DNA from: Oculatellaceae cyanobacterium bins.114
GTDB lineage: Bacteria; Cyanobacteriota; Cyanobacteriia; Elainellales; Elainellaceae
Direction of reading: 5' to 3'
DNA: 64,000 bases
NCBI GenBank assembly: GCA_033764315.1
Contig: JANRJA010000018.1
Location: 17,496 to 81,495 of the forward strand
Position 1 is the stretch's first letter. The number at the start of each line of letters is the position of its first letter. The notes beneath the pieces were generated by a model that did not search any database, was not told the DNA's origin, and was given only the letters and a program-made list of their open reading frames with translations. This document shows, piece by piece, positions 44,382 to 49,702 of this stretch. The position numbers and the translations under genes were made by a program.

Positions 44382-44468
44382 GCCTAACAACCGCGCTGCA
44401 CCGGAACGTTTCAGTATGGTCGGTTTGTTGCGAAGGTTGTTTGCGTCCGGTGAGCGCGACCGTTATGC
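44382..44468 (+). other. attC site 1
   Basis: GCCTAAC-AAC-CGCGCTGCACCGGAACG...CGTCCGGTGAGCGCG-ACC-GTTATGC; imperfect palindrome with extrahelical bases; 87 bp. Confidence 0.88.
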
Positions 44469-44618: not shown

Positions 44619-44909
44619 GTGCGAAAACAGGAAGTCCTGACATTACTGGTAAAGCACCAAAACACGCTGAAGGATTTTGGCGTAAAGTCTCTGATGCTGT
44701 TCGGCTCAGTGGCAAGAGATGAAGCGCGAACAGACAGCGATGTTGATCTGCTAGTAGAGTTTGATCGTCCGGTCGGGCTGTTTGCCTTTGTACGCTTGAA
44801 ACGATACCTGGAAGAGATTTTAGAGAGTTCAGTTGATCTGGGTACGCCCGACTCCCTCAAACCTTATTTACGAGAACCCATTTTTCGGGAGGCGATTCGT
44901 GCCTTCTAG
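44619..44909 (+). CDS. minimal nucleotidyltransferase antitoxin (MntA-like)
   Basis: FGSVARDEARTDSDVDLLVEF (GS-x10-DxD). Confidence 0.88.
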   Translation: MRKQEVLTLLVKHQNTLKDFGVKSLMLFGSVARDEARTDSDVDLLVEFDRPVGLFAFVRLKRYLEEILESSVDLGTPDSLKPYLREPIFREAIRAF

Positions 44910-45237
44910 AGATTGGCAAAATCGAGTAAGGGATGTACTAGCCGCGATCGCAGAAATCCGAGAGTTCACCAACGAAATAACCTTTGAGGAATTTCAGAGC
45001 GATCGCAAAACAATCAGAGCAGTTTTGTATAACTTTGCAATCATTGGTGAAGCAGTTCGTGGCATTCCGCCTGATGTAGAAGCGTTACATCCTGAAATTC
45101 CCTGGGACGATGTACGTGGAATGCGAAATATTGTGATTCACGAGTATTTTCAGGTGAATCTATCGATCATCTGGCAAACGATTCAAGAAGACATTGTTTT
45201 ATTAGAGATCTCGCTTCGTCAACTAATAAACCCTTAA
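44899..45237 (+). CDS. HEPN (DUF86) ribonuclease toxin (HepT-like)
   Basis: IIGEA and RNIVIHEY (Rx4HxY); GTG start overlaps the MNT gene. Confidence 0.88.
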   Translation: MPSRDWQNRVRDVLAAIAEIREFTNEITFEEFQSDRKTIRAVLYNFAIIGEAVRGIPPDVEALHPEIPWDDVRGMRNIVIHEYFQVNLSIIWQTIQEDIVLLEISLRQLINP

Positions 45238-45278: not shown

Positions 45279-45740
45279 ATGCAACAGTCAGAGGATGCGA
45301 ATACACCGAAACCATTGAGCCGAGTACAACGCTGGGAAATAGTACGAACTTTGCTACAACGTGAAAACTTGAGAATTGAGGCAAGAGAGGCATTTCGTCA
45401 GGCTTATCCCAATGCCCCAGAGGAGATGCTAACAACGGCTGTTTTTCATACTTGCGTTGATGGAATTGGAGCCGCAATAGATTGGCTAGTTGATTTAGAA
45501 CTATTTTTACGTGAACCGAGTCGAGAACTTGATATGGGTACCACATATTACCTGTTGTACCATCTTTACAATTGGTATCAGTTTCATGTATTGCTTCCAG
45601 ATGGAAGGACAGGCGTGTTAGAACGTCTTAAAGAAATTAGGGAGTTGATTGCAGATGGAGAGATAGAGGCAATTCTTGCAACAGTTGAGGAGTTAGAAGC
45701 GATGTTTGAAGGTGGTCGAAATAATCCTGATTTTCAGTAA
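45279..45740 (+). CDS. hypothetical protein (third gene of cassette 2)
   Basis: 153 aa ORF ending 6 bp before the ACATAAC box. Confidence 0.7.
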   Translation: MQQSEDANTPKPLSRVQRWEIVRTLLQRENLRIEAREAFRQAYPNAPEEMLTTAVFHTCVDGIGAAIDWLVDLELFLREPSRELDMGTTYYLLYHLYNWYQFHVLLPDGRTGVLERLKEIRELIADGEIEAILATVEELEAMFEGGRNNPDFQ

Positions 45741-45989
45741 GCAGCAACATAACATAGCCTCTGAGCCGGACGAGGTCAAGTAGATCTTGAAGAATTCTGT
45801 TCATTCTCATTGCTCATTACATACACAGACATGTTCATTTAACTGACTCTAAATATGGATTTACAGCATCTATTTTGGAGTCAGTTATTTTGTCTATTCG
45901 TGTTATATTTTTTGGTGCTTTAGCGTCTTTTTACTTTGAATGGGAGTTAGGTTGCTGTGCTCATTCTCTTGCTTTAAGGATTGGCAATG

Positions 45990-47231
45990 TCATAGAGCTA
46001 ATGGCTTAGCAATAGGAGATCCCTTGCGTTTTAAGGATGCAAGATATTTGGCTTCATCGTAGGCTTCCCGGTTCTTCCAACACCGAAACAAAATGCGAAT
46101 CCACTTGAACGCCAGTGACCGCATCGCCGCGGGATGGGATTTGCCCTTAGACCGTTGCATCTGGTAATAAGCTTGTGCCCAGCCACAATGATGACGGCTG
46201 TGATTGGCCCACTCCACAAAGGTCTGTCTCAAGAAGATCGGACAACTCCAACGCCAATGCACCCAGTTCTTTTTGCCGCTACTCTCTTTAACCGGCGCAA
46301 TACCGAAGTAGCACATCATCTGCTGGGCATTCTCAAAACGTGTCCTATCTTCTCCAAAAGCTGCCAGTAATCGCGGAGCCAGATGCTCTCCAGCCCCAGG
46401 TAGAGCCGCAAACCACGCCGCATCCGAAAAGCTGGTAAAGCACTGGTCAATTTTGAGCGTCAGTTCCACTAAGCTTGCCAACAGGGGCTTTAACTGACCG
46501 ATCAAGGTTTGCACTAACCATTGCATCGGCTCAACAATGCCTGGGTCTTCCGTTAAAGGAATACCGGACGCTGCAATCCGCTCAATCCGACGGGCGATTG
46601 CACTGCGACGAATGACACGATGCTGCTGAAAGAATTGGGTAAGTTCTTCTGAACTTGCCGCTTGAGCAGCTTTGAGAGTGGGATAGCGTTCAAGAAACTC
46701 ACAAAACACCTGGGTGTCCTTGTCCTCAAACCAATCAAGCACTTGAGGGTAATAGTTTTTGAGGGCCGAGGTAAGACGATTGGTCAACCGCACCTTCTCG
46801 CCCACTAGCATTCTCCTGGACTCAACCCACGGTCGCAGTGCTCGCATCTGAGCGCTTTCTGGACGCCAAACGGGTAATTTGTCTCCATGCTTTCGCAACA
46901 GTTCGACCAAAATCCGAGCATCAATCGGGTCTGACTTGGCACGAGATGGCTGAAAGGCTTTGCGGTAATTGGAAACAGTGCGGGGATTGATGGGAAAAAG
47001 CACCAGGTTTTCGTACTGGCAAAGCGCATAAACCAGTGGGCCACGTTTTTGCTCCAAGCATACGGCGAGCAAGGCAGTGCCATAGCGTTTTCGTAGTCCC
47101 TCGACCCAAGCAGCAATGGCATCAGGTTGTGATCCAATGACCAACTCTTCGGCTTCCCCTGTGGCGCAATCGTAAAGATAAATGTCATGTTTGCGGTCAG
47201 CCCAATCAATACCGATGTAAGCAGCGTACAC
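45990..47231 (-). CDS. IS110-family transposase (DEDD recombinase)
   Basis: YIGIDWADRKH, VCLEQ and KSDPIDA (DEDD); PGAGEHLA; GIAPVKESSGK. Confidence 0.95.
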   Translation of the reverse strand: MYAAYIGIDWADRKHDIYLYDCATGEAEELVIGSQPDAIAAWVEGLRKRYGTALLAVCLEQKRGPLVYALCQYENLVLFPINPRTVSNYRKAFQPSRAKSDPIDARILVELLRKHGDKLPVWRPESAQMRALRPWVESRRMLVGEKVRLTNRLTSALKNYYPQVLDWFEDKDTQVFCEFLERYPTLKAAQAASSEELTQFFQQHRVIRRSAIARRIERIAASGIPLTEDPGIVEPMQWLVQTLIGQLKPLLASLVELTLKIDQCFTSFSDAAWFAALPGAGEHLAPRLLAAFGEDRTRFENAQQMMCYFGIAPVKESSGKKNWVHWRWSCPIFLRQTFVEWANHSRHHCGWAQAYYQMQRSKGKSHPAAMRSLAFKWIRILFRCWKNREAYDEAKYLASLKRKGSPIAKPLAL

Positions 47232-47276
47232 GTCCTAATTCATAATGTTATTCTCGAATTACAGTTGGTGATGCAA

Positions 47277-47468
47277 CTGGGACGGCTTCTGCTCAAGGCG
47301 ATAAAGATTATGGAAGGTGTTGCCGCACCGACCTCTGAGGATTCGTTGGAGAGAGAAGCACAGGGTGGGGCGAGGCGATATGTTAGTAGACATCGAATGT
47401 CATCAAGTGCATGGTCGTCTCCTACCCTGCGTCCCAGTGATGAAGCTGAGTTTATATCCTCTGCTTCA
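47277..47468 (-). ncRNA. candidate IS110 bridge RNA
   Basis: Predicted 5' hairpin (47441-47468) and two stem-loops closed by the 47277-47284/47430-47437 stem; the internal loops match the attC target and the element ends. Confidence 0.65.
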
Positions 47469-47484
47469 GTCCTGTCCTCCCATA

Positions 47485-47565
47485 AATTCAAATGCAGCGG
47501 ACGGTTGACAGCCGCTGGTACTGAGTTTTAGGCTAACTGCCGCCGCTGCATTTGAGTCGTTATGC
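47485..47565 (+). other. attC site 2 (right part; R'' box at 45747-45753 separated by the IS)
   Basis: TCAAATGCAGCGG...CCGCTGCATTTGA-GTC-GTTATGC. Confidence 0.8.
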
Positions 47566-47669
47566 ATATATTCAACCTTAAAAGAGTCAAGCTGGGAGCG
47601 ATCGCCCAGGTTGATTTGGTCAGCTTAACTCCCTACCGTTATGCATATGTTCAACATTAGAAGAGTCAA
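47558..47669 (+). repeat. 33-bp direct repeat of a cassette 5' leader (47558-47590 and 47637-47669)
   Basis: CGTTATGCATATATTCAACCTTAAAAGAGTCAA vs CGTTATGCATATGTTCAACATTAGAAGAGTCAA; 3 mismatches. Confidence 0.85.
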
Positions 47670-49613: not shown

Positions 49614-49702
49614 GTATAACAAGTTGCTGCACCGGAACGGAGCCATAATTTATCTGTCGAGTTCCAAAAGCTACTGCCGTCCGGTGAGCTTGGTCGTTAG
49701 CC
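49614..49702 (+). other. attC site 4
   Basis: GTATAAC-AAGTT-GCTGCACCGGAACGG...CCGTCCGGTGAGC-TTGGTC-GTTAGCC; arms nearly identical to attC1. Confidence 0.88.

Follow-up and report, generated by a model that had tools for sequence, protein, structure and literature searches.

A probable bridge-RNA gene in an IS110-group insertion sequence that interrupts an integron attC site of an Oculatellaceae cyanobacterium

Introduction

Integron attC sites are imperfect inverted repeats, bounded by RYYYAAC and GTTRRRY, that are repeated between single-gene cassettes. The stretch analysed here, 64,000 nucleotides (nt) of the Oculatellaceae cyanobacterium bins.114 (contig JANRJA010000018.1, positions 17,496 to 81,495; hereafter the window), contains an array of such sites, one of which is split by 1.7 kb of DNA carrying a recombinase gene. 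How did this DNA come to lie within an attC site, and what is encoded by the non-coding DNA upstream of the gene? A sequence-only reading of the window had proposed that positions 47277-47468 on the minus strand encode an RNA resembling the bridge RNAs of IS110 elements, with two guide segments matching the attC target and two matching the element ends. We conclude, from comparison of sequences, that 47277-47469 (minus strand) is very probably a bridge-RNA gene belonging to an IS110-group insertion sequence (45754-47484) that integrated in an integron attC site. The locus is a clear further example of a known RNA-guided recombination system, the system itself being already known. This explains the 1.7-kb interruption of the attC site and annotates an RNA gene that lies outside Rfam coverage.

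A bridge RNA was to be expected here: Durrant et al. (2024, PMC11208160) predict such an RNA in 85.7% of IS110 elements, and a 2026 survey preprint has 32,190 predicted loci. According to the portions of the literature drawn on here, the bridge RNA of IS621, a member of the IS110 group, has a 5' stem-loop followed by a target loop and a donor loop (PMC11208160). Cleavage of the IS621 top strand follows the second core base, an almost invariant T; the first core base is loosely constrained (Hiraizumi et al. 2024, PMC11208158).

The insertion and its recombinase gene

Relatives were collected by scanning genome contigs with the recombinase protein, and the best 80 of 188 confirmed relatives, at 79 loci, were used (loci are numbered L001 onwards). 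Among these 80, most are cyanobacterial and 60-94% identical, and those from proteobacteria, acidobacteria and myxobacteria are 43-55% identical. A pattern search for left ends gave 42 entries, including the window's own.

The ends of the element were set at 45754 and 47484 by comparison with the five intact attC sites of the same array, and homology with relatives is bounded by the same ends. The element is 1731 base pairs (bp) long and is read on the minus strand. The interrupted attC reads ACATAAC^ATAG...CCCATA^AATTCAAATGCAGCGG, which places the insertion between TAAC and AA; the element sits between GTTA (the complement of the R'' box) and the 'TT' that follows R''. In element orientation the target before insertion reads ...TGCATTTGAATT^GTTATG..., and the junctions are ...GAATT|TATGGGAGG... 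and ...CTCAGAGGCTAT|GTTATG.... Donor and target have a single T in common, so that 45755-47485 is an equally valid span, and the base before this T varies among targets. Left flanks end in T in 38 of 40 relatives, with position -2 variable (T 24, G 11, A 5). The right ends of relatives read CTAT. Their right flanks start with GTTA in 25 of the 27 entries with a detected right end, where the detection pattern itself required [GT]TT, and a BLAST-based look gave CTAT|GTT in 9 of 10 relatives. A first reading of the ends, in which both junctions shared TATG as a 3-4-nt core, was ruled out by the five intact attC sites.

The recombinase open reading frame (ORF) comprises 413 codons from a GTG (45990-47231, minus strand). 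It matches PF01548 (9e-27) and PF02371 (5.3e-16) and scores 164.5 bits against the NCBIfam model NF033542, 'IS110 family RNA-guided transposase' (cut-off 140). Alignment with the solved IS621 recombinase (8wt6; E 1.3e-7) showed that the positions of D11, E60, D102, D105 and S241-G242 are kept; the roles of D11, E60, D102, D105 and S241 in IS621 are given in PMC11208158. The gene beside the RNA is therefore identified as that of a DEDD/Ser recombinase of the IS110 family. The RNA itself is held by the 253-nt non-coding left end, upstream of this gene.

The interrupted attC site

The array between 44382 and 54240 comprises at least six attC sites, separated by ORFs of cassette size. The main part of the interrupted site (47485-47565, plus strand) comprises the left target TCAAATGCA (47488-47496), an inverted partner and the R' box GTTATGC (47559-47565). 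The R'' box, ACATAAC (45747-45753, plus strand), is the right target and reads GTTATGT in element orientation. The arms of the interrupted site pair over 13 nt, the partner of the left target lying 59 nt away (local score 13). The five uninterrupted sites start at 44382, 49614, 52670, 53280 and 54183, and each has (R)YYTAAC-AAN and then an arm pairing with its far end, which reads ...GTTATGC or GTTAGCC. No integron integrase domain was found among the 15 ORFs of the 38-60 kb region checked against Pfam; judged on these ORFs, no integrase accompanies the attC array.

The flanks of the relatives are attC-like as well. The left flanks have an inverted partner upstream, with a mean score of 6.44 compared to 5.70 ± 0.15 under permutation (0 of 5000 permutations reached it). 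TAAC[GA] occurs 55-100 nt from the insertion at 28 of 37 loci, compared to 3, 1 and 3 of 37 in control windows.

The R' end of the window's interrupted attC reads TGCATTTGAGTC|GTTATGC (plus strand, 47546-47565) and is a near-copy of the used target that has C where the target has T, just ahead of GTTA. C is also found there at the far end of four of the five uninterrupted sites. A requirement for T would explain why insertion took place at the R'' end only. Read in the opposite direction to the used target, this R' end (47546-47565, plus strand) thus carries a second copy of the motif, TGCATTTGA...GTTATGC.

Four guide segments match the target and the element ends

Alignment folding and stem tests delimit the body of the predicted RNA to 47277-47469 (minus strand), made up of a 5' hairpin, a closing stem, a target-binding loop and a donor-binding loop. 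RNA positions are numbered from window position 47484 on the minus strand. The span 47277-47468 of the sequence-only reading corresponds to RNA 17-208 and runs from the 5' hairpin through the 3' strand of the closing stem (CUGGGACG/CGUCCCAG). All four matches claimed in that reading were recovered at their coordinates, and both the polarity of the strands and the order of the loops are those of bridge RNAs of the IS621 type. Together with the adjoining IS110-family gene and the order of 5' hairpin, target loop and donor loop, this supports its interpretation of the RNA as a bridge RNA.

In the first loop, the left target guide UGCACUUGA (RNA 74-82; 47403-47411, minus strand) agrees with the flank TGCATTTGA (the complement of 47488-47496) at 8 of 9 positions and reads like the top strand of the left flank from -12 to -4 relative to the crossover. 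The right target guide (RNA 100-106; 47379-47385, minus strand) reads UAACAUA and equals 45750-45756 (plus strand) at 7 of 7 positions. It consists of UAAC, the core AU and one further base, A, and is complementary to TAT|GTTA at the right junction. Both (C)UAACAUAU in the RNAs of relatives and GTTA in their right flanks are nearly invariant. The sequence-only reading had treated TAACATA as the target junction; the 7/7 match holds, but the five uninterrupted attC sites assign its last three bases (ATA) to the element. By analogy with the handshake base of IS621 (PMC11208158), the final A of UAAC-AU-A would pair with the T before the right-end core and not with the target, and such pairing with the donor would account for the 7/7 match to the finished junction.

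In the second loop, the left donor guide CUCAGAGG (RNA 146-153; 47332-47339, minus strand) equals the complement of 45758-45765 at 8 of 8 positions. This is the left donor segment at the right end of the element (CTCAGAGG, minus strand), which is followed by CTAT; the guide reads like the right end from -12 to -5. The right donor guide CCUUCCAUA (RNA 168-176; 47309-47317) matches 47476-47484 (plus strand) at 8 of 9 positions, the single mismatch being a possible G:U pair. The matched DNA is the right donor segment at the left end (TATGGGAGG, 47476-47484, minus strand). With the core AU included (47307-47317, minus strand), this guide would pair at 11 of 11 positions, one of them G:U, with AT+TATGGGAGG, the sequence expected where the right and left ends are joined. 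It fits these joined ends better than the integrated left junction (TT+TATGG).

The two loops are read in the same register. Both left guides begin at the fourth base of a 13-nt strand and end at -4/-5, with the next RNA bases unmatched, and both 3' guides run into AU (core AT). Among relatives, the farthest reach of the 5' guide is -3 (L008). The offset of about 2 nt between left target guide and left donor guide, noted as a caveat in the sequence-only reading, disappears because the ends were redrawn to 45754 and 47484: both left guides now span -12 to -4/-5 from the crossover.

Guides follow the flanking DNA in relatives

All four matches together were reached in 1 of 20,000 mononucleotide shuffles of the left-end body. 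The verdict that they exceed chance is based on the comparison with relatives, not on the four matches by themselves. Each insertion was given a guide-flank score by comparing the loop 1 5' strand, locally and without gaps, with its own left flank and taking the best match; as a control, flanks were permuted among loci. Over 40 insertions, the mean score was 6.45 compared to 5.03 ± 0.18 for permuted flanks, a value reached in 0 of 5000 permutations. The TGCA shared among targets is already allowed for by this control, because all flanks are attC arms. Clear fits include L008 (TGCATCGCGC, 10/10), L026 (CGCAACCAG, 9/9, with an unusual arm), L038 (9/9) and L004 (TCCAGCGA against TCAAGCGA). Among distant relatives of 43-55% identity, the guide fits the flank at 10 of 10 positions in L064 and at 8 of 9 in L055 and L062. 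Changes in loop 1 therefore track changes in the target, in the 40 insertions as well as in distant relatives, a test that had been suggested along with the sequence-only reading.

Within the window, the 5' guide scores 7 on the occupied attC and 3-4 on the five other attC sites, and fits the occupied site alone in the array. RNA-guided aim at attC, as proposed earlier, is thus supported; the variable 5' guide, however, is not directed at a generic motif, and on this point that proposal needs correction.

The donor guides match the element ends of relatives. The left donor guide fits the right end at 7-8 of 9 positions in 21 of 24 relatives, and the guide classes AGAGG and AGGGA go with matching ends. 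When G:U is counted as a pair, the right donor guide and the left end are complementary at 10-12 of 12 positions in each of the 35 relatives compared.

Compensatory changes preserve the predicted helices

The 5' hairpin (UGAAGC.GAG/CUC.GCUUCA) occupies 47441-47468 (minus strand). It is followed by the target-binding module (47361-47429, minus strand), which has a basal stem, a CGA/UCG clamp, a 13-nt 5' strand, an inner hairpin GACAU/AUGUC and a 10-nt 3' strand. The donor-binding module (47285-47359, minus strand) has a basal stem GCUUCU.CUC/GAG.AGAAGC, a CGA/UCG clamp and an inner hairpin GGUG/CACC. Both modules follow the same plan of stem, nearly invariant CGA/UCG clamp, 13-nt 5' strand, small hairpin and 3' strand, and the closing stem encloses the two.

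From 11 left ends of the window's type, aligned with MAFFT, RNAalifold predicted 36 pairs in the 5' hairpin, the closing stem and the target-loop stem with its inner hairpin; 13 of these show compensatory changes. Pairing in the 5' hairpin survives two-sided changes in these 11 relatives (for example CG:5 UA:3 and GC:6 AU:2). The donor-loop pairing proposed by RNAalifold (UCUC with GAGG) was discarded as a mis-pairing, and the donor stem was tested by permutation of its arms instead.

A 15-pair structure of the target loop was scored in 58 modules, against slid pairing partners and 500 shuffles. The pairs were formed in 85.7% of cells, compared to 38-50% with slid partners, and two-sided changes were found in 104 cells compared to 19-36. 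The covariation score was 0.288 compared to at most 0.139, and none of the 500 shuffles reached these values. The inner hairpin alternates cleanly between GACA/UGUC (33 modules) and GUCA/UGAC (23 modules). Cognate arms of the target-loop stem pair at -12.4 kcal/mol, compared to -9.0 ± 0.3 kcal/mol when arms are swapped between elements (0 of 5000 permutations). Those of the donor-loop stem pair at -8.9 compared to -7.5 ± 0.4 kcal/mol (4 of 5000 permutations, 29 modules), and the donor inner hairpin occurs in the compensatory variants GGUG/CACC, AAGG/CCUU, GAUGA/UCAUC and UGGGUC/GACCCA. Covariation over homologous elements, which had been put forward as a check, thus shows compensatory changes in the stems.

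Points against a functional bridge RNA and alternative readings

Several observations weigh against the reading of this region as a bridge-RNA gene. The single-sequence folding check proposed with the earlier reading gave no support: the minimum free energy gave z = -1.0, no better than shuffles, with an at least equally good fold in 30 of 200. No Rfam family was matched at gathering level over the whole window, and a search of the RNA region at E values up to 10 gave two chance-level matches only. The donor-loop pattern was unmatched in 8 of the 42 left-end entries. Taken singly, the four matches occur in 1925, 2639, 370 and 2899 of the 20,000 shuffles (2-15%). Guide fits are poor at L030 (3), L043 (4), L016 (4) and L008:2628 (4). 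Covariation of the donor guide is weak (278 of 5000 permutations reach it) because the element ends hardly vary, and the right guides and their DNA are invariant and hence uninformative for covariation. The left guides stop 3-4 nt before the crossover, whereas all four IS621 guides include the core. In addition, the first base of the RNA core AU fails to match the target TT, the left target guide places a C opposite an A at its one mismatch, and the non-coding right end, at 236 nt, exceeds the length described as typical for the IS110 group. Finally, some changes are private to this copy. Codon 3 of the ancestral recombinase frame is TAG, the target-loop stem contains an A.C mismatch, and the 3' strand of the donor loop is longer by one inserted A that has no counterpart in close relatives.

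The private changes bear on the state of this copy, which may be disabled. In twelve relatives, whose proteins begin M-S/N/T-Q/T-..., the start is an ATG that precedes the position of the window's GTG by 12 nt, and CAG or another sense codon stands where the window has TAG. The window reads ATG AAT TAG GAC GTG, with the ancestral ATG at 47241-47243 and the TAG at 47235-47237 (minus strand). The RNA gene could accordingly be genuine and the copy a decaying, immobile relic, in which the stop prevents normal synthesis of the recombinase and leaves the RNA without a partner unless one is supplied. The altered start, the private changes in both loops, the mismatch between guide and target and the lack of a second element copy within the window all speak for such a relic. 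On the other hand, an open frame of 413 codons remains, with 94% identity to L001, and the GTG lies 3 nt after the stop, so that re-initiation is possible. L030 has CTG at the position of the ATG, and L027 reads likewise in the alignment, so that this ATG may not be the sole start. We regard the relic as possible but rather unlikely; the copy may depend on re-initiation or on another copy.

A far less probable explanation is that the repeats act as DNA, the internal end-like and target-like copies being protein-binding sites like the subterminal repeats of other transposons. The donor-loop segments do repeat the element's own ends, and a weak, imperfect inverted repeat of 7-8 bp (GGACAGG/CCTCGTCC) lies near the ends. 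However, the best local end-to-end inverted match in a search for subterminal inverted repeats scored 8 compared to 6.9 ± 1.4 in shuffles, and was reached in 144 of 500. DNA-binding sites would not need the compensatory changes that keep the surrounding helices paired, the variable segment follows the flank and not the element, and the protein family is documented as RNA-guided. Least probable of all is a structured 5' leader that controls recombinase translation, with four coincidental matches helped by the palindromic attC: the region does adjoin the start codon on its upstream side, another small hairpin (RNA 206-223) stands in front of that codon, and each match is common by itself in shuffles, but the joint occurrence of four matches (1 in 20,000) and the tracking of flanks by guides in 40 independent insertions and in other phyla would be left unexplained.

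Relatives with two tandem target loops

A bridge RNA of the window's type has one target loop. In 30 of the 42 left-end entries, two tandem target-loop modules, at about +30 and +157 from the end, precede one donor loop. The two modules have different 5' guides and the same 3' strand. Left ends with tandem modules measure about 340-450 nt and occur in most relatives of 60-70% identity, and the window's element has a plain 5' hairpin where these relatives have the first module. The tandem-module loci are L005, L008, L009, L011-L020, L022, L024-L026, L028, L032, L033, L035, L037-L040, L044, L048, L049, L051, L071 and L078.

Both loops were compared with the flanks of the tandem relatives, which fit either the one loop or the other. 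Loop 1 scored a mean of 5.79 compared to 4.72 (0 of 5000 permutations), and loop 2 a mean of 5.00 compared to 4.44 (25 of 5000). In a Leptothermofonsia genome, copies with identical guides differ in their sites: that of L032 fits loop 1, and those of L005 and L071 fit loop 2. Both tandem target loops thus appear to be used. The two-loop relatives, if functional, suggest a route to two targets for one bridge recombinase.

Literature searches on two-target-loop bridge RNAs and on attC targeting of the IS110 type returned nothing relevant, supplements lying outside the search, and Section 2.4 of the 2026 survey preprint mentions neither.

Two of these loci also carry fragments. At L008 (1607-1690), a solo fragment of about 75 nt extends from the left end exactly as far as the DNA of the loop 1 3' strand (...TAACATAT) and is followed by attC GTTAGCGG; its flank fits the guide at 10 of 10 positions, and it looks like a deletion between an internal TAT and the right-end TAT. 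At L078 (2636-2662), the left end of a Leptothermofonsia copy abuts a right-end-like remnant of about 27 nt (TTGGACTCC...CCTCAGAGGCGAT) and not an attC arm. A tandem or circle junction at L078 was ruled out, as only this remnant stands beside the left end; it could stem from insertion next to an old end or be what remains of a tandem pair.

Comparison with known systems

Several features described for IS621 recur here. In both, the left end holds the RNA, with the DEDD/Ser recombinase gene downstream of it, and loop order and polarity are the same; the crossover follows a T whose preceding core base is variable; and the promoter is split between the right and left ends, which for the present element is our prediction. 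Just past the core, loop 1 has a base that is complementary to the donor and not to the target, as expected of a handshake guide like that of IS621. In contrast to IS621, the RNA here is about 190 nt long, and its two loops, each with a CGA/UCG clamp, are enclosed by an additional stem. Its left guides leave the core uncovered, and its right donor guide is long, at 9 nt plus the core, and rich in U, with some G:U pairing. The core of the donor reads AT rather than CT, and the target is a structured attC site. The recombinase has 413 amino acids, compared to 328 in the solved IS621 chain, and its similarity is weak. Left guides that stop short of the core may help to define what the recombinase itself reads.

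An IS1111-attC group (ISKpn4, ISPst6, ISPa21) was reportedly recognised by Tetu and Holmes in 2008 and by Post and Hall in 2009. Targeting of attC is documented for the IS1111-family elements ISKpn4 and ISPst6, including in the part of the seekRNA work consulted here (Siddiquee et al. 2024, PMC11187229). As described there, the IS1111-attC elements resemble the present one in having a DEDD-type recombinase, insertion at one end of attC in a fixed orientation and an element-encoded guide RNA. They differ in having the RNA downstream of the gene, with the order of target segments reversed, whereas here both loops are upstream of the recombinase gene in an IS110-like order. IS1111 elements also have subterminal inverted repeats of 7-17 bp, in contrast to none that is significant here. 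Targeting of attC in the two groups looks convergent, the IS1111-attC elements being set apart by their descriptions and not by protein comparison. In the literature searched, the terms IS110, attC, integron and 'bridge RNA' co-occur in Durrant et al. alone, a paper in which the IS1111 work is cited.

The wider interpretation is that the relatives form an undescribed IS110-type clade in cyanobacteria, proteobacteria, acidobacteria and myxobacteria that became specialised for attC independently of the IS1111-attC group. Most cyanobacterial members would have two tandem target loops with different 5' guides and one donor loop, both target loops being used, which would amount to natural multiplexing with two attC classes per element. 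We hold the chances of this interpretation being right or wrong to be about equal.

Two further IS110 elements offer partial parallels in the available accounts. The region upstream of the gene in ISEc21 gives a short seekRNA that matches both target strands (PMC11187229), as predicted here, with a different target. The natural targets of ISPpu10 are copies of a stem-loop-forming repeat, for which sequence and structure may both count (bioRxiv 10.64898/2026.03.19.712850); unlike here, that target is a Pseudomonas putida intergenic repeat and not attC.

A closer parallel is L080 (2187-3760) on a Klebsiella plasmid, with 42% protein identity. It has the same left-end layout, ACGAA...UUCG loops and a CUCAGGG donor guide. 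Unlike in the window's element, its 3' target strand is CCGCUU, complementary to its own right flank AAGCGG, and its flanks are without TAAC...GTTA boxes. L080 shows what is, by its sequence, probably a loop re-aimed within the wider clade. The L080 element lies directly after another IS110-family gene. L080-type recombinases (<60% identity) occur in many enterobacterial plasmid records, with Klebsiella accounting for 261 and Enterobacter for 151 of 954 matching records.

The element and its relatives provide about 40 natural guide/target pairs for a bridge RNA aimed at a structured, semi-conserved recombination site. They suggest that attC sites can be split by IS110-type elements, and not by the IS1111 type alone, so that cassettes of chromosomal arrays become frozen or fused.

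Proposed mechanism of insertion

By analogy with IS621, the excised element would form a circle with the junction ...CTCAGAGGCTAT|TATGGGAGG.... At the right end, a -35-like TTGACC (45774-45779, minus strand) is separated from the terminal TAT by 17 nt, and TTGAC is kept at the same distance from the right end in relatives. TTGACC-17-TATGTT is the sole sigma-70-like site in 45650-47650 and points outwards from the right end. Joining of the ends would create a TTGACC-17-TATTAT promoter that could transcribe the RNA and the recombinase gene, with a start site some 7-10 nt from the left terminus and immediately ahead of the 5' hairpin. Junction promoters have been described for both families in the part of PMC11187229 used here.

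A recombinase tetramer would then hold the RNA, with loop 2 pairing with the junction and loop 1 with an attC, and the top strands would be cut after the shared T and exchanged, again as in IS621. On this model, the variable 5' guide would select the individual attC, and with it the cassette, and the conserved 3' guide together with the T would restrict insertion to the R'' end in one orientation.

Other features of the element and the array

In the integrated element, the right-end TTGACC together with the flank forms a promoter-like TTGACC-17-TATGTT (45751-45779, minus strand), which points out of the element and is antisense to the upstream cassette ORF at 45279-45740. The non-coding right end (45754-45989) is AT-rich and conserved in its last ~33 nt only; it contains a large hairpin at about 45833-45886 and a small terminator-like site at 45914-45927 (plus strand).

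The cassettes of the array include a nucleotidyltransferase/HepT toxin-antitoxin pair (44619-45237), a GNAT acetyltransferase, an ATP-grasp protein and several ORFs without a family. A larger block between the attC sites at 49614 and 52670 encodes a TetR regulator, a hydrolase, a DUF1330 protein and a MOSC protein. The octamer GCGATCGC, a mark of cyanobacterial genomes and in keeping with the element's nearest relatives, recurs in many repeat families across the whole window.

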